Source: Escherichia phage vB_EcoM-G3F7 | Sequence record: MZ234035.1 | Direction: 5' to 3' (one strand) | Length of the DNA stretch: 64,000 nucleotides | Shown: one piece after another, positions 19,922-33,092 of the stretch | Layout: the number at the start of each line of letters is the position of its first letter | Numbering within the stretch: the stretch's first letter is position 1 | Made by a program: the position numbers and the translations under genes | The notes under the pieces: generated by a model | Seen by the model: the letters and a program-made list of their open reading frames with translations, nothing else | Told to the model about the DNA's origin: nothing | The model's database searches: none

Positions 19922-20860
19922 ATGTACAATATTAAATGCCTGACCAAAAACGAACAAGCTGAAATTGTTAAACTGTATTCAAGTGGTAATTACACCCAGC
20001 AGGAATTGGCTGATTGGCAAGGTGTATCGGTTGACACAATCCGTCGTGTTTTGAAAAATGCTGAAGAAGCAGAACGCTCTAAAGTTACTATTAGCGGTGA
20101 CATTACAGTTAAAGTTAATAGCGATGCAGTTATTGCTCCAGTTGCTAAATCTGACATTATTTGGAATGCATCTAAAAAATTCATTTCAATTACTGTTGAC
20201 GGTGTAACTTATAACGCAACTCCTAATACTCATTCAAACTTCCAGGAAATTCTTAATCTGCTTGTAGCGGATAAGTTGGAAGAAGCGGCACAAAAAATTA
20301 ATGTTCGTCGCGCTGTTGAAAAATATATTTCCGGCGATGTTCGAATTGAAGGTGGAAGCTTATTCTATCAAAATATTGAATTGCGGTCTGGTTTGGTTGA
20401 TCGTATTCTTGATTCGATGGAAAAAGGCGAAAACTTTGAATTTTATTTTCCGTTCTTGAAAAATCTGCTGGAAAACCCAAGCCAGAAAGCGGTATCTCGA
20501 CTCTTTGATTTCTTGGTAGCAAACGATATTGAAATTACAGAAGATGGTTACTTCTATGCTTGGAAAGTAGTTCGTAGCAATTACTTTGATTGTCACTCAA
20601 ACACTTTTGATAACAGTCCTGGTAAAGTAGTTAAAATGCCGCGTACTCGTGTGAATGACGATGATACGCAAACTTGTTCCCGCGGTTTGCATGTATGTTC
20701 TAAATCTTATATTCGTCACTTTGGCAGTTCAACCAGCCGAGTCGTAAAAGTTAAAGTACATCCGCGTGATGTAGTATCAATTCCGATTGATTACAACGAT
20801 GCTAAAATGCGTACCTGCCAATACGAAGTAGTTGAAGACGTTACTGAACAATTTAAATAA
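19922..20860 (+). CDS. rIIB: rIIB protein
   Basis: 312 aa MYNIKCLTKNEQAEIVKLYSSGNYTQQELADWQGVS...; matches T4 rIIB as recalled. Confidence 0.93.
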   Translation: MYNIKCLTKNEQAEIVKLYSSGNYTQQELADWQGVSVDTIRRVLKNAEEAERSKVTISGDITVKVNSDAVIAPVAKSDIIWNASKKFISITVDGVTYNATPNTHSNFQEILNLLVADKLEEAAQKINVRRAVEKYISGDVRIEGGSLFYQNIELRSGLVDRILDSMEKGENFEFYFPFLKNLLENPSQKAVSRLFDFLVANDIEITEDGYFYAWKVVRSNYFDCHSNTFDNSPGKVVKMPRTRVNDDDTQTCSRGLHVCSKSYIRHFGSSTSRVVKVKVHPRDVVSIPIDYNDAKMRTCQYEVVEDVTEQFK

Positions 20861-20874
20861 GGGCTTCGGCCCTT
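20859..20874 (+). terminator. Stem-loop after rIIB
   Basis: AAGGGC-TTCG-GCCCTT; weak T-tract. Confidence 0.4.
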
Positions 20875-20888
20875 AACTAAGGAAAATT

Positions 20889-21083
20889 ATGTTAGGTTAT
20901 CAAGCACGAGTAAAAGAAGAATACGATCAATTAATGCTCAAAATTAATGCACTTAGCAATTTTTTAGAAAGCACAAAGTTTCTAACGGTTAGTGCAGTTG
21001 AGCAAGAATTGCTACTTTCGCAGTTTATCTCAATGAAATCTTACGCAGATTGTTTAGAAAAAAGAATTGCACAATTCAAATAA
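20889..21083 (+). CDS. Hypothetical protein (64 aa)
   Basis: Track ORF with ATG, flanked by two GGGCTTCGGCCC hairpins. Confidence 0.5.
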   Translation: MLGYQARVKEEYDQLMLKINALSNFLESTKFLTVSAVEQELLLSQFISMKSYADCLEKRIAQFK

Positions 21084-21086
21084 AAT

Positions 21087-21108
21087 AAGGGCTTCGGCCC
21101 TTTTGTTT
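21087..21108 (+). terminator. Rho-independent terminator
   Basis: AAGGGC-TTCG-GCCCTT followed by TTTTGTTTT. Confidence 0.5.
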
Positions 21109-21146
21109 TAAGGGAAATTATGATTCCGACATAAAGGAAAGTTTAA

Positions 21147-21704
21147 ATGCAGAAAACGAATCCGGGTTTGCAGAGACTATTTCAGATTCCGTCATTTACC
21201 CTATCGAACAGTGACTTGACTAGTGAAATGAAGGTCAAAATTGCTGATACTGCAAGATACTCTTTAAAACAAAACCCGAACCAGGATAAAGCAGAAGTTA
21301 TCGAAAGATGTCGTATCGCTGTGTACGCAGAGTTTTTTGTGGCAGATTGGCTAAGAGGGTATGTTAACAAAGGCCAAGAGGATGTTAATGACCCGTATAC
21401 ATACGCATGGGATGTACTGGCGCATCCAAAATACTGCGGGCTTCGTGTAGAAGTTAAGACACATCAAACTGACTCACGTTGGATTTCGGTAACAACAGGA
21501 TGCAGCGGAGAGTATCCATATGGTTCTGGAATAAATCTAGGGCCCATTCTAAATCATCAAGTCGCTGACTGTATAATTATATTCAACACTAAAGAAATTC
21601 ATCCAGGTGTCATCCAGTACACTCCGAAGTTCATCGGTGACAGAGAAGACCTTCGTAAGGTTGTAAGAAAAAGCAACTACAATGGATGGTATCTTTCCAT
21701 TTAA
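21147..21704 (+). CDS. denB: Endonuclease IV DenB
   Basis: 185 aa, size and synteny (after rIIB) as in T4. Confidence 0.8.
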   Translation: MQKTNPGLQRLFQIPSFTLSNSDLTSEMKVKIADTARYSLKQNPNQDKAEVIERCRIAVYAEFFVADWLRGYVNKGQEDVNDPYTYAWDVLAHPKYCGLRVEVKTHQTDSRWISVTTGCSGEYPYGSGINLGPILNHQVADCIIIFNTKEIHPGVIQYTPKFIGDREDLRKVVRKSNYNGWYLSI

Positions 21705-21720
21705 AAATTTTCACAAAACG

Positions 21721-21750
21721 GTTTACATACCACAAGGACTGTGGTACTAT
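21721..21750 (+). promoter_or_regulatory. T4-type early promoter (member of repeated promoter cassette)
   Basis: GTTTAC 21721-21726, 18-nt spacer, TACTAT 21745-21750. Confidence 0.5.
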
Positions 21751-21777
21751 ACAACTATCAGCTACGGAGGAGTAAAA

Positions 21778-22041
21778 ATGAAATTTAAATTTTATTACGC
21801 TAAACATAAAATTACCGGTGAATTTATTGCATTTACGACTTCAACTACAGATGAAGGAGATATTTTTACTGCAGTATTTTTATCAAAATGGGAATCAGAT
21901 CAACCTTACTTATCATCACGTGAAGATCTCCAACGATTAGTTAATGGAGAATATAATGATTCATGGTCATATTTAGTCCATGATTGTGTTAAAAAGGCAA
22001 TAAAACAAAAACACTTGGAAATCGTTGAGATTGAACTATGA
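21778..22041 (+). CDS. Hypothetical protein (87 aa)
   Basis: Track ORF 21682..22041 runs through the promoter; ATG 21778 follows GGAGG with 7-nt spacer. Confidence 0.5.
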   Translation: MKFKFYYAKHKITGEFIAFTTSTTDEGDIFTAVFLSKWESDQPYLSSREDLQRLVNGEYNDSWSYLVHDCVKKAIKQKHLEIVEIEL

Positions 22042-22120
22042 GTTCATTATGGTGGTGTTTCGTTTGGTTAATTAGTATTCCATTAATTTGTTTAACATTT
22101 ACTTTTGTGATGAGGTTATT

Positions 22121-22219
22121 ATGAAAATTTTGAATTCTGTGCTTATTGCTTGTGCGTGGTGGGTTGCGCAAGTTTCAGCAGTAGTAGTTGGTATTCACAT
22201 TTATTACGAATATTTTTAA
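22121..22219 (+). CDS. Tiny hydrophobic peptide (32 aa)
   Basis: Hand-translated MKILNSVLIACAWWVAQVSAVVVGIHIYYEYF. Confidence 0.3.
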   Translation: MKILNSVLIACAWWVAQVSAVVVGIHIYYEYF

Positions 22220-22284
22220 AAAAGTTGTTTACAAGACTGTTCTTCCGTGGTATTATTACCCTATCAACTACGGAGGAACAGAAA

Positions 22285-22398
22285 ATGAAAAAGATTGTTA
22301 AAGCTATATGGAATGTAGTTATAATACTAATAGTTTTGAGTATATTCCCAATCGTTTTAATGATTGATGTATTAAACGCTTACTTTGGATTTATGTGA
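22285..22398 (+). CDS. Tiny transmembrane peptide (37 aa)
   Basis: Track ORF 22150..22398 N-terminus overlaps a promoter; ATG 22285 follows GGAGG; MKKIVKAIWNVVIILIVLSIFPIVLMIDVLNAYFGFM. Confidence 0.4.
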   Translation: MKKIVKAIWNVVIILIVLSIFPIVLMIDVLNAYFGFM

Positions 22399-22405
22399 GG
22401 AAAAT

Positions 22406-22603
22406 ATGAAGCGTAAACGCAGTGCTTTTACATTTATTGAATGGTTTTTCGATAATATTTTTCCGGCTTTATTCATTTTCATGCTGATTTTTGCTTTAGG
22501 TTCAGTTGTAGTTGGAATCTATTTGATGACAGTAGTCGGAATTGATATTCATCAAAATGGTTTAAAATCCGTAGTTGAAACAATTTGGAACGGTGTAAAA
22601 TGA
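22406..22603 (+). CDS. Small transmembrane protein (65 aa)
   Basis: Track ORF 22385..22603; ATG 22406 follows GAGGAAAA. Confidence 0.4.
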   Translation: MKRKRSAFTFIEWFFDNIFPALFIFMLIFALGSVVVGIYLMTVVGIDIHQNGLKSVVETIWNGVK

Positions 22604-22710
22604 TGAATTTGCTGAGCGGTTGGTTTTATATTCTTATGTTTTACATTGGCGCAAATTTTCCATATTGGATGGGATGGTCAACAACTGCGTTTGGATTTTA
22701 TACTCCTTGA
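22600..22710 (+). CDS. Tiny hydrophobic peptide (36 aa)
   Basis: Hand-translated MMNLLSGWFYILMFYIGANFPYWMGWSTTAFGFYTP; ATGATGA overlap with upstream stop. Confidence 0.3.
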   Translation: MMNLLSGWFYILMFYIGANFPYWMGWSTTAFGFYTP

Positions 22711-22718
22711 GGTGAATT

Positions 22719-22934
22719 ATGAAAATCTTTAAAGATGTAAAAGTTGGTGAAATTTTCTGTTTAGATAACGGTGATCAGTTAATTCGTATTTCACCTCTTA
22801 AGAGCACTAGCGAGAAACCGACAGTTAACGCTACTTTAGCAAACAATAGTAATGAACGTTTCTGTATTGAAAATGATACTGAAACTTATACCGTAGAAGA
22901 GTTTTGGGAATTGAGCGTCGACTGCGACGATTAA
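22719..22934 (+). CDS. Hypothetical protein (71 aa)
   Basis: Track ORF, ATG after GAGGTG. Confidence 0.45.
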   Translation: MKIFKDVKVGEIFCLDNGDQLIRISPLKSTSEKPTVNATLANNSNERFCIENDTETYTVEEFWELSVDCDD

Positions 22935-22994
22935 TTTAATGGCCGTGTGTATTCATGCGGCCTTGGAGTAGAAAATAATTTAGAGGAAATTAAT

Positions 22995-23453
22995 ATGAAA
23001 TACATGACTGTTACTGATCTGAATAATGCAGGCGCTACCGTTATTGGTACAATCAAGAACGGTGAATGGTTTTTGGGAGTTCCACATAAAGATATTTTAT
23101 CTAAACCTGGATTTTACTTTTTAGTAAGTAAATTAGATGGTCGTCCATTTAGTAATCCATGTGTGTCTGCACGATTTTATGTAGGTAATCAGCGTTCTAA
23201 GCAAGGATTTAGTGCGGTTCTAAGTCATATTCGTCAACGTCGGTCTCAGCTTGCGCGTACTATTGCAAATAACAATGTTCCATACACAGTATTTTATCTG
23301 CCTGCTTCTAAGATGAAACCTCTGACTACGGGATTTGGAAAAGGTCAGTTAGCTTTGGCGTTTATTCGTAATCATCATTCTGAGTATCAAACACTTGAAG
23401 AAATGAACCGTATGTTGGCTGATAACTTTAAATTCGTTTTGCAGGCATATTAA
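22995..23453 (+). CDS. ndd: Nucleoid disruption protein Ndd
   Basis: Track ORF 22947..23453; from ATG 22995 the sequence [18 protein letters not shown]... matches T4 Ndd as recalled. Confidence 0.85.
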
Positions 23454-23533
23454 TGAGTAATTTCCACAACGAACATGTGATGCAGTTCTATCGTAATAAT
23501 TTTAAAACTAAAGGCGTCTTCGGACGCCAGTGA
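23453..23533 (+). CDS. stp: Stp peptide (26 aa), activator of the host PrrC anticodon nuclease system
   Basis: Hand-translated [26 protein letters not shown], identical to T4 Stp as I recall it; TAATG overlap with ndd stop; contains GGCGTC-TTCG-GACGCC hairpin. Confidence 0.8.
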
Positions 23534-23540
23534 GGAAAAT

Positions 23541-23699
23541 ATAAATATTGCAAAATTATTAGGAGTTATTTCATTTATTTGTTGGATAGTAGCATGTGTT
23601 TTAACTATCTGTATTGATGTCAGCAGTGTGTTTTCGCAAGCTTTAGCTCAGGGTATGTGTGCATATTTAACATTTGTGTTGTTATCTACTAATGATTAA
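23541..23699 (+). CDS. ac: ac-like small membrane protein ORF without an in-frame AUG at its 5' end
   Basis: 52-codon hydrophobic frame INIAKLLGVISFICWIVACVLTICIDVSS...LSTND after GAGGA; possible AUA/AUU initiation or an inactivated gene; position between stp and 52 as T4 ac. Confidence 0.3.
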   Translation: MNIAKLLGVISFICWIVACVLTICIDVSSVFSQALAQGMCAYLTFVLLSTND

Positions 23700-23832
23700 G
23701 AAAATCTTGGGCTATTCATTAGCCCTTGCTATTTTATTGATAGCATTATATTACGGAATAATGTTCGGATTAATTCAAGTCGTGCTTTTCATTTCTGATG
23801 TTATTATGGCACTACATTCACTAGTATGGTAA
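23692..23832 (+). CDS. Small membrane protein (46 aa)
   Basis: Hand-translated MIKKILGYSLALAILLIALYYGIMFGLIQVVLFISDVIMALHSLVW; ends 4 nt before gene 52. Confidence 0.4.
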   Translation: MIKKILGYSLALAILLIALYYGIMFGLIQVVLFISDVIMALHSLVW

Positions 23833-23836
23833 ATTT

Positions 23837-25165
23837 ATGCAACTGAATAATCGTGATTTAAAAAGTATCATTGATAATGAAGCATTGGCTTATGCTATGT
23901 ACACGGTTGAAAATCGTGCCATTCCAAATATGATTGACGGATTTAAGCCAGTTCAACGATTTGTTATTGCTCGAGCTCTTGATTTGGCACGAGGAAATAA
24001 AGATAAGTTTCACAAACTCGCTTCTATCGCAGGCGGTGTAGCGGACCTTGGATATCATCATGGTGAAAACTCTGCGCAAGACGCAGGTGCTTTGATGGCT
24101 AACACTTGGAATAATAACTTTCCTCTGTTAGACGGTCAAGGAAACTTTGGTTCTCGTACTGTCCAAAAGGCAGCAGCAAGTCGTTATATTTTTGCTCGTG
24201 TAAGTAAAAATTTCTATAACGTATATAAAGATACTGAATATGCTCCAGTACATCAAGATAAAGAACACATTCCGCCTGCTTTCTATTTGCCTATTATTCC
24301 TACTGTTCTTCTTAATGGCGTTTCCGGTATTGCAACTGGTTATGCAACTTACATTCTTCCTCATAGTGTTTCTTCTGTCAAGAAAGCTGTACTGCAAGCT
24401 CTTCAAGGAAAGAAAGTAACTAAACCGAAGGTAGAATTCCCAGAATTTCGTGGTGAAGTCGTTGAAATTGATGGGCAATATGAAATTCGTGGAACATATA
24501 AGTTTACTTCACGAACTCAAATGCATATCACTGAGATTCCATATAAGTATGATCGTGAAACTTATGTGAGTAAAATCTTAGACCCGCTTGAAGATAAAGG
24601 CTTCATTACATGGGATGATGCTTGTGGTGAGCATGGCTTTGGCTTCAAAGTTAAATTCCGAAAAGAATACTCTTTGAGCGATAATGAAGAAGAACGCCAT
24701 GCAAAAATTATGAAAGACTTCGGGTTGATTGAGCGTCGTTCCCAGAATATTACCGTCATTAATGAGAAAGGAAAGCTGCAAGTTTACGATAATGTAGTTG
24801 ATTTAATCAAAGACTTCGTTGAAGTTCGTAAAACTTATGTCCAAAAACGAATTGATAACAAAATCAAAGAAACTGAATCAGCATTTCGTTTAGCTTTTGC
24901 CAAGGCACATTTCATTAAGAAAGTAATTTCAGGTGAAATTGTTGTACAAGGTAAAACTCGCAAAGAACTGACCGAAGAACTTTCTAAAATTGATATGTAT
25001 TCTTCTTATGTTGATAAACTAGTTGGAATGAACATTTTTCATATGACTTCCGACGAAGCAAAGAAACTTGCTGAAGAAGCTAAAGCCAAAAAAGAAGAAA
25101 ACGAATATTGGAAAACTACTGATGTAGTTACAGAATACACCAAAGATTTAGAGGAAATCAAATGA
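23837..25165 (+). CDS. 52: DNA topoisomerase II medium subunit gp52 (GyrA-like)
   Basis: 442 aa; matches T4 gp52 as recalled. Confidence 0.93.
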   Translation: MQLNNRDLKSIIDNEALAYAMYTVENRAIPNMIDGFKPVQRFVIARALDLARGNKDKFHKLASIAGGVADLGYHHGENSAQDAGALMANTWNNNFPLLDGQGNFGSRTVQKAAASRYIFARVSKNFYNVYKDTEYAPVHQDKEHIPPAFYLPIIPTVLLNGVSGIATGYATYILPHSVSSVKKAVLQALQGKKVTKPKVEFPEFRGEVVEIDGQYEIRGTYKFTSRTQMHITEIPYKYDRETYVSKILDPLEDKGFITWDDACGEHGFGFKVKFRKEYSLSDNEEERHAKIMKDFGLIERRSQNITVINEKGKLQVYDNVVDLIKDFVEVRKTYVQKRIDNKIKETESAFRLAFAKAHFIKKVISGEIVVQGKTRKELTEELSKIDMYSSYVDKLVGMNIFHMTSDEAKKLAEEAKAKKEENEYWKTTDVVTEYTKDLEEIK

Positions 25166-25311
25166 GTCCATTCATTGGTATCACAAGCGCTGCATTAGTA
25201 TCTGGTGGCATTTTACTGGCGGGTTTAGGTGTTGTTCCTGCCGTAGCAGGAGGTCTTCTTGCGTTCGGAATTCAACGTGTTATCATGACAGTTATCACAG
25301 TCATGCAGTAA
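25162..25311 (+). CDS. Small membrane protein (49 aa)
   Basis: Hand-translated MSPFIGITSAALVSGGILLAGLGVVPAVAGGLLAFGIQRVIMTVITVMQ; ATGA overlap with gene 52 stop. Confidence 0.4.
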   Translation: MSPFIGITSAALVSGGILLAGLGVVPAVAGGLLAFGIQRVIMTVITVMQ

Positions 25312-25316
25312 TTTTA

Positions 25317-25341
25317 GGGAGAGCCTCGGCTCTCCCTTTTT
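25317..25341 (+). terminator. Rho-independent terminator
   Basis: GGGAGAG...CTCTCCC stem-loop followed by TTTTT. Confidence 0.55.
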
Positions 25342-25366
25342 ATTTCAAAAATTTTTTCACAAAACG

Positions 25367-25396
25367 GTTTACAACCAAAGCATACTGTGGTACTAT
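25367..25396 (+). promoter_or_regulatory. T4-type early promoter (repeated cassette)
   Basis: GTTTAC 25367-25372, 18-nt spacer, TACTAT 25391-25396; cassette shared with 42716-42769. Confidence 0.5.
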
Positions 25397-25445
25397 ACAA
25401 CTATCAAATAAATGAACTGAAACAAACAACCCGGAGATACAAAAA

Positions 25446-25673
25446 ATGAAATTTAAAATCGAAAACGAAATCGTTAAAGCTAAAAATGCTCTGACTGCTA
25501 ACAAACTGGTTGTAGATGGTATTGAATATGATATCTGTGGAGTTCGTGAAGAAAAACCTGGTGTTCTGACTTTCTTCACAATGATTTTTAAATTTAAAGG
25601 TGACACAGAATTCAAACAGTTTGATTTTGCCCATGAAGACGAAATCGAAGTTCGTAATCTGAACATTAAGTAA
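25446..25673 (+). CDS. Hypothetical protein (75 aa)
   Basis: Track ORF, ATG start after promoter. Confidence 0.5.
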   Translation: MKFKIENEIVKAKNALTANKLVVDGIEYDICGVREEKPGVLTFFTMIFKFKGDTEFKQFDFAHEDEIEVRNLNIK

Positions 25674-25778
25674 GTACTTTATTAGAGCTCTTGAAAAAGA
25701 GTGCAAAAAAGTGTTTACTTCTGCTTTAAACATGATACTATAGACCTATCAAATAAATGAACTGAAACGGAGATTAAA

Positions 25779-26414
25779 ATGTCTAAAGTAACTTACATCA
25801 TCAAAGCTTCTAACGATATTCTGAATGAAAAAACTGCTGCGATTTTAATTACCATTGCTAAGAAAGATTTCATTACAGCTGCAGAAGTTCGTGAGGTGCA
25901 TCCAGATTTAGGCAATGCAGTAGTTAATAGTAATATTGGGGTATTGATTAAAAAAGGCCTGGTGGAGAAATCTGGTGATGGATTAATCATTACTGGTGAA
26001 GCTCAGGATATTATTTCAAATGCAGCAACTTTATACGCACAGGAAAACGCTCCGGAACTGCTGAAAAAACGAGCAACTCGTAAAGCTCGCGAAATTACTT
26101 CTGATATGGAAGAAGATAAAGACTTCATGTTAAAACTTTTAGATGAAAATGGATTTGTTCTTAAAAAGGTTGAAACTTACCGCAGTAACTATCTCGCTAT
26201 TTTAGAAAAACGCACTCACGGAATTCGTAATTTTGAAATTAACAACAATGGAAATATGCGAATTTTTGGATACAAAATGATGGAACATCATATTCAGAAA
26301 TTTACTGACATCGGAATGTCATGTAAAATCGCTAAAAACGGTAATGTGTATCTTGACATTAAACGTTCGGCAGAAAACATTGAAGCTGTAATCACTGTAG
26401 CATCTGAACTGTGA
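25779..26414 (+). CDS. motA: MotA, activator of middle transcription
   Basis: 211 aa MSKVTYIIKASNDILNEKTAAILITIAKKDFITAAEVREVHPDLGNAVV...; matches T4 MotA as recalled. Confidence 0.9.
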   Translation: MSKVTYIIKASNDILNEKTAAILITIAKKDFITAAEVREVHPDLGNAVVNSNIGVLIKKGLVEKSGDGLIITGEAQDIISNAATLYAQENAPELLKKRATRKAREITSDMEEDKDFMLKLLDENGFVLKKVETYRSNYLAILEKRTHGIRNFEINNNGNMRIFGYKMMEHHIQKFTDIGMSCKIAKNGNVYLDIKRSAENIEAVITVASEL

Positions 26415-26424
26415 GGAATAAATA

Positions 26425-26754
26425 ATGAACAAGTTAGAAATTGTCAATGAACTTCGTCGTTGTGTAGAACCTACTCAAGAGGGTTGGGACATCTGGTACC
26501 ATGGAGCTTATCTTGGAACTATCGTAAAGATTAAGACTGGCAAATACATGATTATTCGTGAAAGTAAAGATGCTCCAGTAGGTATTCGCAATAATTTCAT
26601 GGCAGCTATAAGTTCCTTTATGGATTCAGCTTACGAAATTTACCTTGCTGATTATAAAGAATTCCATGAATCTCAACCAGTTATTCGCTCAATTGGTGTT
26701 AACAAAGCTCAACAGAAAACTTTATGGCAACGTATTAAAGGATGGTTTAAATGA
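26425..26754 (+). CDS. Hypothetical protein (109 aa)
   Basis: Track ORF, ATG after GAGGA. Confidence 0.5.
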   Translation: MNKLEIVNELRRCVEPTQEGWDIWYHGAYLGTIVKIKTGKYMIIRESKDAPVGIRNNFMAAISSFMDSAYEIYLADYKEFHESQPVIRSIGVNKAQQKTLWQRIKGWFK

Positions 26755-26906
26755 AAACATTTAAAATTGTCGTAGAATTTTATAACGGCGAAGGTGTAGT
26801 CCATCTTAAAGCGGCCAACCAGTTTGATGCGGTAAGAGTATATTGTCAATGCTTTGAAAGTTCTAAACAAGCTATAAAAATTAAAAGTGTTGAGGAAACC
26901 AAATGA
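26751..26906 (+). CDS. Hypothetical small protein (51 aa)
   Basis: Hand-translated [51 protein letters not shown]; ATGA overlaps at both ends. Confidence 0.35.
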
Positions 26907-27370
26907 AAACCTTCAAAGAGCGTCTTGAATTATTAGACCTGGCTTTATTACGTGAAACTCCAGAAAGTCTAGCAGCTAAATTACAGGCCTATGGCGACTA
27001 CACCGAATATACGGAAGAGGATGTTTTAGAAGAGGTTCCTGAAATCTGTTGGCAAGTAGCTCATTGGAACAATAATGAAAAATATCAACGTCGAATTGTG
27101 TGTGCAGCCAACCGCTTTAAGTTAAAAGATGGTGGGACTCTGGTTATTCCTGGTGCTCGTCATTATTCTAAAGATATGGCTGAAGTTCTTGACCAGGTAA
27201 GTGATAAACTTGTATCAGACCATGTTTGTGGTGAAGACCAAGGATTTATTGACCAGTATAGCAATTACTGGACACGTGAAGAAGCAATGATTATTGCAAC
27301 TTACGCTGGACAAGTGCGTATTGAACGTGGTGGTAGTGAAAAAGAACTTTACTCTGAGGACCTTTACTAA
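26903..27370 (+). CDS. Hypothetical protein (155 aa)
   Basis: Track ORF, ATG after GAGGAAA. Confidence 0.5.
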
Positions 27371-29322: not shown

Positions 29323-29355
29323 AGACCCTCCTTTTAAGGGTATTTATTCACATTA

Positions 29356-29552
29356 TACTCTTGGACCATATATTGCTCCAACATTTTGCCATGTTGGAGC
29401 GGACCCTATGACAGCATAACCAGCAGCGCCGCCATTATATTCAGATCCTTGACCGCGAATATTGCATCTACCTCCCGCGGAACCTACTTCACCACCGTTT
29501 CCACCATTATAGATACCATTCACGGATCCTGAGCCAGGTGCAGAAATAGAAT
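29356..29552 (-). other. 38: gp38 C-terminal coding segment lying in a different frame from the main gp38 ORF
   Basis: Minus-strand frame offset by one nt encodes ...[63 protein letters not shown] with stop at 29353-29355. Confidence 0.55.
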
Positions 29553-30107
29553 AGATCCTCCTGGCGCACCAAAAGGACGACCGCCACCACCACCAAAGGT
29601 CAATCTCATTCGTGAAAAAGGAGAATAATATCCGCCGCCGCCACCGCCGCCACCGCCTGCAATAGCTCCGCCATTATTAATTCTTAGTCTCCCACCAATA
29701 TCGTTTTGAATACAATGACCTCCAGCTGAGCCAGGACTATTGCTACCGCCATTACCTCCACGACCATACATCGTTACGCCATGTATATTTAACTGAACAT
29801 ATTCATTTGGTGTATCTCCGTACATGAAGAATAAAGGAACATCTTTAGAATAAGAAACGATATCACCAACAATATTGAATACAATAGGTGCACCGCCAGC
29901 TTCAAAGCATCTATCACGGAACCACTGACCATTAAAATTGTGGTTTGCTCCTACAGTATGAATAATTTCTCGTGAGCGACCTGCAAATTGACTCATCCAG
30001 CAAGGAACACCCAATCTTAATTGACCAGCCGCTTGACTCATCCAGCGCTGTCCTGTTTCATTTGCGGCTGAACTTCCAATCCAACCAGGAACACCAACTA
30101 CTGCCAT
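29520..30107 (-). CDS. 38: Tail-fibre adhesin gp38, T2-type with glycine-rich motifs; ORF ends prematurely at an apparent frameshift
   Basis: 195-codon [16 protein letters not shown]...[35 protein letters not shown] then out-of-frame tail; not the T4-type gp38 chaperone. Confidence 0.7.
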
Positions 30108-30143: not shown

Positions 30144-33092
30144 TTAGAATTTAAAATATTTACTAATTTTGCGAGCAATTTTAGTAAAGAGAGGCGTTTT
30201 CAATTCTTTAATTTCTTCACTCATTTCCTGAATAGCCTTAATTAAAAGAGCATTCACAGCAGAGTTAGAAATTGTCAGAACATCAGATCCATCAACTTCA
30301 ACTTTAGATACAGCTTCCGGTAATTCCTTTTCAAGGTCCTGAGCAATAATACCAACTTCACGTTTAATAACACTACGGTCTTTAATAGACTTAACTTTAT
30401 CGTAAATATAAACTTTCAGTCGGCAAACTTTTTCGACTGCTCCATATTCTAATTCTTCTTTATTAATCTTGAGACGGGAGTCAGAACGAATATACACATC
30501 GCTAAAGCTACCATTTCCTGGTGTATAAAAGAATCCATCATGATGGAATTCAAACACAGCTTGTGGGTGTCCAGCATCAGGAGAAGCCTCCGTGGATCCG
30601 ACACGAATGATTGCTTGCCCCCACTGTGATGGAATACGACGCATACCAAAGTCAACAGCGGTGCTATATCCTTGATTGGTTATAACGCTTCTTGCTTTAA
30701 GAATAGGATAATAACTATCTTGACCAACATAACCATGATCAACGAATAATGGAGCTTCTACTCGCCATTGGTTGCCCCAATCACCCGGTTGTCTAGCAAT
30801 CCATCCAGAACCGTTAATGTGTACACGGTCACGGTTAACGTTAACCATTGCGGTATTTTGCGGGTTTAACGCAATCTCACCATTGTTTGTGATATGTACT
30901 GCCGCCTGAGAAGCATAGCTATAAAATGCTAGCGAATTATCAGCACCACCCTTGCCAATATACCAGTTACCAGTCCCGTCTATGTCACCGCGAATATGCA
31001 AAGAATTACTAGCAGTTGTTGATAATACAATAGAATCATTAGGTGCATTGATTGTTAACCGACCTGTCATCGTATCACCGCCTTTACCTAGGCGAGTATT
31101 CAAGGCAGCATCTAAATTGGTTGCATCGTTGTATTTCTTCCAGATTGAACCAGCAATGTTACCATCAGTGTTCAAGAATGCTGCGCCAGCATAAACTCGG
31201 CTTTGTGACATGAATCGGCCAGACGGCAAGAAACGCCATATAGCTAATTCAGTGGCTGTAGTTCCAGTAGCGGATAAATCACCCTGAGCAACGATACGAT
31301 ATTCTGAACTAGCAATATCCATACCAGAAGCCATAGTAATATTTGTTACAGTGTTTTTCTGTTTAACAATTGGCGCAAACTGGTTTTTATTTGAATCGTC
31401 AATAGCCTGATATAATGGCGCAATGGTAGTATTCTGATTTGCGTAAGTATTAGAACCAGAACCGCTAGCAGGGGCTTGAATATATGCTCCTGGAGCAAGT
31501 GAAATTTTCTGATTAGCACCAAGATTAACAGCAGCAGTGATATTCAGCAATCCCCTAAAGTTTTGTTGAGCAGTCCAAGTGTGTGATCCGTCTTCAAGAA
31601 CAACACGACGACAAGTATTAGTCCTACTTCCTGGATTACCAGCGATACGAACAACGAAATAACGATAGTTCGCCTGAGATACAGTACCGCGCCACACTTG
31701 AACAGTTCGACCCGTTCCGGTATGTTCGCTAGGACCGACAGAAAACATAACCAGGTTTCCATCAATCGTGCCCCAATCCATATTTGCTGGCATATTCTTT
31801 ATTTTGTTCAAAGGAACACTAAACATACTACCAGGGACAAAATCAAAGGTTTGCCAATCTAACTCCGCTAATTGAGCTTTAATACCACCCATACCCAAAG
31901 TAATTGGCAGAGAATAAGATGTATATACTTCGTTCCATGCACCCCACGCACCACCAGTATATGCACGCTCAAAAATACGATCGCGAGTAGTTGCACCCGT
32001 TCCTGCGGTAGTGAAACGTTGGAAAATAGCACCGCCAGAAGCACGCTGTTTAACTTCCAGCAAACCAACAATAACAGTCGGCAAACCTTCACCTGTAGGA
32101 CAGTTAATAACGGCATCAGTGCCTAAAATATTATATAACCCGGGAGTTTTAAAATCATTCAGATCTCCATCATAGAAAGTCGCTGGTGTGCCATGACCAA
32201 CCTGCTTCCATTCCTCCCACTTAGGTGCACTAGCATCCCATGCAGCAGCGAGACAACGAGTATAAACCATACCCATGCGGGTAGTATAACGCTGAGTTCT
32301 CGTGTATAAACCACCTTCAAATATTTCTAAAAATCCTTGTGCGGCTGATCCTTCTTCTGGATAATGGCGATCAAATGATGCGATTGCGCTTGAACTGTTT
32401 CGCCATAAGCCACAATGTTCTAATTTTCCCAAGCTATCAAGGTCAATCGTTTGTGAAAGTGGACGAGTTGACGCTTGAACATTACGCCACACACCCCATG
32501 GACCATCGACGCCATTCCATTTAGCAGATAAGGAACGAATATAGACGTTACCAGATCTTACAGTATAACGCTGAGTGCCAGCAAATTGGCCGGCCACAAA
32601 CACTTCTAGTACACCTACGGCATTTTCTTCTGGGAATTTATTTGCTGGTTGCGCATTTGTTGAAGTAGATTTCGACCAAACACCAAGATATTCTTCAATG
32701 GGCCCATACGTATCTAAATTAGCATCAGTAGGTAATTCGCCATTATTTTTTATAAATGTTGTGCTATTGACATTTATGTCAGATGGAGTTAAGGTAATGT
32801 CCTTTGACCCATCAAAAGATATACCATTAATTTTCCTAGGTGTTTGCAATTTAGTAGCTGTGCTAGAATTTCCAATTAAAGTTCCAGTTATATTTTCTGT
32901 AACCTCTAAAGACCCATTTATAGTTCCTCCATATTTTAAACCTAATTCTATAACACTACCTGAGTCATCTTTTGTGAAAATTGTTTTATCTTTTAAGTTT
33001 ATAGCCAATTCACCTTCGGCTAATACTGAAGCAGCAGGACGTTGACCTGCAGTTTTGCTTCTTTTAAATTGTATTTGTTTTAAAGTAGCCAT
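30144..33092 (-). CDS. 37: Long tail fibre distal subunit gp37 (T2-type)
   Basis: 982 aa; N-terminus [13 protein letters not shown] conserved with T4 gp37, remainder divergent from T4 as I recall it. Confidence 0.88.

Follow-up and report, generated by a model that had tools for sequence, protein, structure and literature searches.

The ac locus between stp and gene 52

The DNA under study (the window, a stretch of 64,000 nucleotides) stems from a Tequatrovirus, i.e. a T4-like phage, and is identical at the ac locus to the GenBank phages G3F10 and CHD94UKE2. The early genes ndd, stp, ac, 52.1 and 52, a block known from T4, lie in this order on its plus strand (Table 1). When annotations and alignments were compared, gene order and spacing at ac were found to be the same in the window, in T4 and in phage WilhelmHis. 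In the T4 reference genome (NC_000866), ac is located at complement 165342..165497 and comprises 51 codons; stp ends 7 nt before it, and 52.1 overlaps its end. The stp product of the window was recognized by Pfam as PF08133 (Nuclease_act; E 4e-20), and the stp stop codon TGA (23531-23533) is overlapped by the GAGGA motif that precedes ac. At the distal end, the ATG of 52.1 lies 5 bases ahead of the ac stop codon, resulting in an 8-nt overlap of the two genes (ATGATTAA).

Table 1. Positions of genes and sequence elements at the ac locus of the window.
Feature	Position	Strand	Basis
ndd, nucleoid disruption protein, upstream neighbour	22995..23453	+	annotated there in G3F10 and CHD94UKE2; T4 ndd in same position
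stp, 26 aa, activator of host PrrC anticodon nuclease	23453..23533	+	ORF; T4 synteny
ac Shine-Dalgarno sequence GAGGA	23532..23536	+	invariant in T4, WilhelmHis, U115 and PM123
ac mutated initiator codon ATA	23541..23543	+	G-to-A at 23543 relative to ATG in T4 and nearly all relatives
ac coding frame, intact beyond the start codon (52 codons and TAA)	23541..23699	+	T4 Ac homology; phrog_2501
ATT, in-frame weak near-cognate start candidate two codons after ATA	23547..23549	+	codon walk
52.1, 46-aa predicted membrane protein	23692..23832	+	Pfam DUF7396, E 5e-22; T4 52.1 annotation
Gene 52, DNA topoisomerase II medium subunit, downstream neighbour	23837..25165	+	ORF; T4 and WilhelmHis annotation

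Neither stp nor ac is annotated in the GenBank records of G3F10, CHD94UKE2 and PM123. The same three records let 52.1 begin at an upstream TTG (23674), which yields a product of 52 aa, while the annotations of T4 and WilhelmHis use the ATG corresponding to 23692. A single base change, described below, leads annotation pipelines to drop ac and to mis-start 52.1.

A C(UUCG)G tetraloop hairpin on the plus strand (23513..23528; stem GGCGUC/GACGCC, loop UUCG; GGCGUCUUCGGACGCC) is situated within the 3' end of stp and immediately precedes the ribosome-binding site of ac. It has a predicted stability of -11.5 kcal/mol (z -2.3) and is identical in T4. A T-run is missing on the plus strand, and a terminator score was obtained for the minus strand only; the element is thus not an intrinsic terminator for the plus-strand transcript. 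The hairpin may serve to stabilize the mRNA or to shape the coupling of stp and ac.

A separate observation concerns the relationship of the window to G3F10. Along 49 kb, the window departs from G3F10 (record MZ234038 from position 32001) at a single place, a 28-nt deletion at 29549/29550 in the minus-strand gene gp38 for the receptor-recognising adhesin of the long tail fibre. The deletion lies between AATAG direct repeats and splits, by frameshift, a protein of 260 aa into pieces of 195 aa and 56 aa (ORFs 29520..30107 and 29353..29523). The 28 nt are present in 12 of the 12 best-matching records listed (two aligned pieces spanning 169 nt). The deletion may mark a host-range variant or a defective one, or it may be due to misassembly or to editing of the source sequence.

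Identity of the frame as an ac allele

Translated from 23541, the frame is identical to T4 Ac in 47 of 51 residues (92%); the differences include A27V and an additional threonine near the C-terminus. The 52-residue form with the extra threonine is common among relatives. It is also found in phage PP01, which is reported in a preprint to be acriflavine-sensitive, and this form is hence functional. The frame matched phrog_2501 with an E value of 8e-24, and database homologues, which are 83-100% identical, carry PF26944 and the name 'acridine resistance protein'; a scan with a Pfam copy that lacks PF26944 gave no match. The product is strongly hydrophobic (GRAVY 1.46) with two hydrophobic segments, around residues 3-25 and 34-48, and DVSSVFSQ between them, and a two-helix ESMfold model of Ac has been reported in a preprint. 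Chance resemblance is no issue given 92% identity to T4 Ac in the same position. Similarity and synteny thus identify the frame (23541..23699) as orthologous to T4 ac.

With the T4 Ac family the predicted protein shares similarity over its full length, the location between stp and 52.1 on the early-gene strand, and a hydrophobic two-helix layout of 51-52 aa. It departs from the family in its lack of a canonical start codon behind the Shine-Dalgarno sequence. The locus is a mutant allele of ac and not a normally expressed family member.

Absence of a canonical start codon

The ac frame is open from 23481, behind an in-frame stop codon at 23478, to the TAA at 23697-23699. Its 5' part reads ATA AAT ATT GCA AAA TTA, and both a codon walk and the mechanically generated ORF list revealed no in-frame ATG, GTG or TTG between 23481 and 23627; the first canonical codon in frame is GTG at 23628. 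The two near-cognate codons close to the GAGGA motif are the ATA at 23541, spaced by 4 nt, and the ATT at 23547, spaced by 10 nt. For the latter, no evidence was found for use as a start.

The original prediction, which had been made from the letters of the window, agrees with these results in most respects. It had described a 52-codon hydrophobic frame behind GAGGA in the position of T4 ac between stp and gene 52, and this was borne out, with 52 sense codons plus stop counted from 23541. The same holds for the lack of ATG, GTG or TTG near the 5' end of the frame, for ATA and ATT as the near-cognate candidates, and for a separate 46-aa ORF with a normal ATG that overlaps the end of the frame and proved to be T4 52.1. 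Only the limits given for the frame needed revision: the end at 23699 was right, and the start at 23534 is merely the first base past the stp stop codon, the gene proper extending from 23541 to 23699.

Several other explanations of how the frame might be expressed were considered and rejected: (i) a start further upstream within stp, where from 23481 on only ATC, ATA and ATT codons are available in frame, all lacking a Shine-Dalgarno sequence; (ii) an internal restart at GTG 23628, which would yield a fragment of 23 aa and likewise lacks a Shine-Dalgarno sequence; (iii) a restart at ATT 23577, which is placed behind an internal AGGAG but costs 12 residues of the first helix; (iv) an altered mRNA structure, as folds of the ATA and the ATG versions both retain the stp hairpin and show similarly weak structure over the start; and (v) a promoter, for which a consensus scan near ac gave nothing above background.

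The ATA codon is derived and recent

In an alignment of the region, T4 ac was found to begin with ATG AAT ATT GCA (junction gtgaggaaaatATGaatattgca) and the window frame with ATA AAT ATT GCA (junction gtgaggaaaatATAaatattgca). The start codon was ATG in T4, WilhelmHis and U115; within this alignment, ATA was present only in the window and in PM123. The distribution of the two versions was then determined in a phage collection. The ATG version was found in 175 records and in another 172 records of a second common haplotype (AATATC), i.e. in 347 altogether, while the ATA version was confined to three records (CHD94UKE2, G3F10 and PM123). An ATA version of the second haplotype was found in none of the records. 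Environmental matches to the junction had G at the position in question in five of five IMG/VR contigs and in four of four metagenome contigs; a junction scan of bacterial genome contigs found none.

Allele counts are from exact searches of the phage collection with 32-nt words centred on the start codon.

The closest comparison is offered by WilhelmHis, which belongs to the same species (Tequatrovirus gee4498). In the 701 nt surrounding the site, the only mismatch between it and the window is at 23543, and this is the sole difference across 20460..27196 (6.7 kb) within a comparison of 20 kb. The remainder of the ac ORF is identical in both phages; the window thus carries one transition, which affects the initiator codon, in a gene that is intact elsewhere. 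Taken together, the alignments and counts identify ATA as a derived allele that arose recently by a single G-to-A transition at 23543. The absence of secondary decay from the ORF suits a very recent mutation, and it suits continued use equally well.

The original prediction had left a choice between non-canonical initiation as the normal state of the gene and a mutation of the start codon. Since T4 and 347 records have ATG and only three related records have ATA, the choice falls on the mutation. A conserved AUN start in ac was accordingly rejected: T4 ac, which had been named as the gene that might share an AUA or AUU start, begins with ATG, as do all environmental matches.

Inheritance of the allele by PM123

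Phage CHD94UKE2 was isolated from wastewater. Together with CHD16UKE1, G3G7 and 101117BS1 it was subjected to 20 rounds of Appelmans-type breeding, from which PM123 emerged as one of the progeny (PMC8614997). PM123 was aligned with its parents over 3.7 kb. It has CHD94UKE2-specific bases from about 22570 to 23549, among them A23543, and this tract begins between 22495 and 22570. By 23620 PM123 is of the CHD16UKE1/G3G7 type, with GCC instead of GTC at codon 27. The parental type therefore switches between 23549 and 23620, which implies a crossover inside ac. The other two sequenced parents, CHD16UKE1 and G3G7, have ATG. The marker pattern thus identifies A23543 as a real base that PM123 inherited by recombination.

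Expected effects on translation of ac and 52.1

Apart from the initiator codon, the translation signals of the region are those of the wild type, i.e. the GAGGA motif, the ac coding frame and the overlapping 52.1 are unchanged. With AUA in place of AUG, Ac synthesis should fall because fMet-tRNA pairs poorly with AUA at the ribosomal P site. Reports on AUA initiation cover a wide range. In E. coli reporters AUA gave about 1-2% of the activity obtained with AUG (10.1101/063800). When AUG was changed to AUA in T4 rIIB, about 85% of translation was lost at 25 C and about 15% was kept, in a temperature-sensitive manner, as the work of Belin (1979) is cited in PMC5499595. By contrast, AUA equalled AUG in vitro in an optimised initiation region, which indicates that context matters (PMC5499595). 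From these values Ac output would be expected to drop to a few percent of normal, or to about 15% at most, and we infer a strong defect. Some synthesis of Ac could persist owing to the strong Shine-Dalgarno sequence and the stp stop codon 7 nt away, which might permit termination-reinitiation. The phenotype could be partial because AUA can be leaky.

The ATG of 52.1 overlaps the ac stop codon, and no Shine-Dalgarno sequence was found upstream of it (ttgttatctactaATG); 52.1 is therefore probably translationally coupled to ac. If so, expression of 52.1 would decrease along with that of ac by polarity.

Predicted acridine phenotype

Wild-type Ac is known from the literature as an early inner-membrane protein of 51-52 aa that causes infected cells to accumulate acridines and renders them acridine-sensitive. 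The ac gene is non-essential, and resistant mutants are present in T4 stocks at about 1e-5 to 1e-4. T4 phages in which ac is deleted, or carries a single insertion, deletion or substitution, plate on acriflavine about 4 logs better than the wild type, which supports the earlier statement that loss of ac in T4 leads to acridine resistance; E. coli cells that expressed Ac became sensitised, and Ac is proposed to act by blocking AcrAB-TolC efflux (10.1101/2025.06.30.662393).

On this basis we consider it likely that the single recent change from ATG to ATA has produced phages that are ac-deficient or strongly hypomorphic and are predicted to grow on acriflavine, possibly with a leaky or temperature-dependent phenotype. 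The phages with the ATA allele are, by analogy with the T4 mutants, probably acriflavine-resistant.

It is doubtful, by comparison, that AUA, or AUU two codons further on, still supports functional levels of Ac, so that ac would be a tuned-down yet working gene and the phage would be acridine-sensitive. Such initiation would be assisted by the strong GAGGA motif and by ribosomes that terminate at the stp stop codon 7 nt upstream. The unchanged Shine-Dalgarno sequence and spacing, the otherwise intact ORF, the activity of AUA in the optimised in vitro context and the residual 15% quoted for rIIB at 25 C (PMC5499595) are all compatible with it, and the allele has outlasted 20 rounds of breeding and resides in PM123, the most virulent progeny. 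However, ATA is not conserved (three related records versus 347 with ATG), and the in vivo reporters (10.1101/063800) argue for a much lower activity. Only one of six bred progeny carries the allele, so there is no sign of selection, and its survival in the breeding was to be expected anyway because ac is non-essential.

Other ac disruptions and the question of selection

With tblastn, ac was found in 462 phage records, and alleles that disrupt the gene account for about 1-2% of them. In SP21535 the ac ATG is lost through a 12-nt deletion; Sf25 has a deletion that leaves the 5' portion of stp fused to the 3' portion of ac. A +1 G frameshift is present near the C-terminus, at codon 39-40, in the reference genome of T6, and for G4500 an N-terminally truncated Ac product was seen, at the protein-sequence level only.

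In some relatives the sequence that precedes ac differs. Yersinia phage PST has, immediately 5' of the T4-type ac, another ac-like gene that is divergent (...FFCWFFLCIGTVITGETSVFLQASAQG...GSKNS), and the 3' end of stp in SHFML-11 and T6 resembles the end of this paralogue, which suggests recombination between tandem ac paralogues. One database protein of 81 aa from a Logan assembly is an in-frame fusion of stp and ac; it implies a frameshift in the 3' part of stp in that assembly, leading into the open ac frame upstream of the ATG.

There is no evidence for selection of the ATA allele, given its presence in one of the six bred progeny. That loss of ac was positively selected rather than neutral, e.g. 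by DNA intercalators present in wastewater or the isolation host, is improbable. Several independent ac-disrupting alleles among relatives (SP21535, Sf25 and T6, with the truncated product in G4500) are in line with such selection, as is the role of intercalators as antiphage chemicals to which T4 is sensitive because of ac, according to the literature. On the other hand, the disrupting alleles are rare among the 462 records, Ac is otherwise highly conserved, and ac-resistant mutants occur in any T4 stock at 1e-5 to 1e-4, so that one of them could become fixed now and then, during isolation or passage, without selection.

A combination of both ideas, in which ATA is a working and selected hypomorph, was given little credence. 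Here, initiation at AUA or AUU via the strong Shine-Dalgarno sequence and reinitiation from stp would set a low, perhaps temperature-dependent level of Ac and 52.1. If true, the phage would be protected from intercalators while the benefit of Ac is kept, and this may have aided retention of the allele in PM123.

Least probable is a sequencing or assembly error at 23543 in a phage that truly has ATG: the site does lie in an AT-rich stretch (AAAATATAAATATT) and all three ATA records come from one laboratory's sequencing project, but the three genomes were assembled and deposited separately, sister phages sequenced in that project, among them CHD16UKE1, G3G7 and PM105, have ATG, a substitution error repeated only in one related lineage is unlikely, and an artefact is made very unlikely by the inheritance of A23543 with its flanking CHD94UKE2 markers in a separately sequenced descendant. 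The correction to ATG that had been envisaged as an outcome is thus not to be expected, and the reading preferred here remains a start-codon mutation that would lower Ac strongly.

Comparison with known systems

Wang and Ripley (1998) reportedly employed the 51-codon T4 ac gene as a target for scoring forward mutations. More recently, Arvizu Santamaria et al. (2025) examined the knockout and point mutants again. The classical loss-of-function ac mutants of T4 and T2 and the allele of the window have in common the gene, its genomic position, a single-base lesion that removes or cripples function and the expected phenotype. They differ in origin, the classical mutants having been selected on acriflavine whereas the ATA allele comes from natural wastewater isolates and a bred therapeutic candidate. 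They also differ in the site of the lesion, as the ATA allele affects the initiator codon rather than the coding sequence, and its phenotype is a prediction.

With respect to the lesion, the closest parallel is the AUG-to-AUA mutant of T4 rIIB (Belin et al. 1979, PNAS 76:700, as cited in PMC5499595), in which the same third-base transition affects the initiator of an early gene in a T4-type phage. According to that citation, translation in T4-infected cells was reduced and temperature-sensitive rather than abolished. The gene and the context of the ribosome-binding site are different, and the effect was measured for rIIB while it is inferred for ac. The AUU start codons of E. coli infC and pcnB resemble the ATA of ac as near-cognate AUN codons behind a good Shine-Dalgarno sequence. 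In contrast to ac, where ATA is limited to one recent lineage and other relatives have ATG, the AUU codons of infC and pcnB are conserved across species and regulatory.

No new mechanism is involved. The allele is an ordinary knock-down and belongs to a known class, in which a gene that is conserved in general but dispensable has lost its function or become hypomorphic. Together with the natural null alleles of other phages, it indicates that ac has been lost repeatedly in sequenced T-even phages although it is strongly conserved. G3F10, CHD94UKE2 and the therapeutic candidate PM123 are predicted to be acriflavine-resistant, unlike their close relatives. The ATA phages G3F10 and CHD94UKE2 on the one hand and WilhelmHis on the other form a near-isogenic natural pair for studies of what Ac does.
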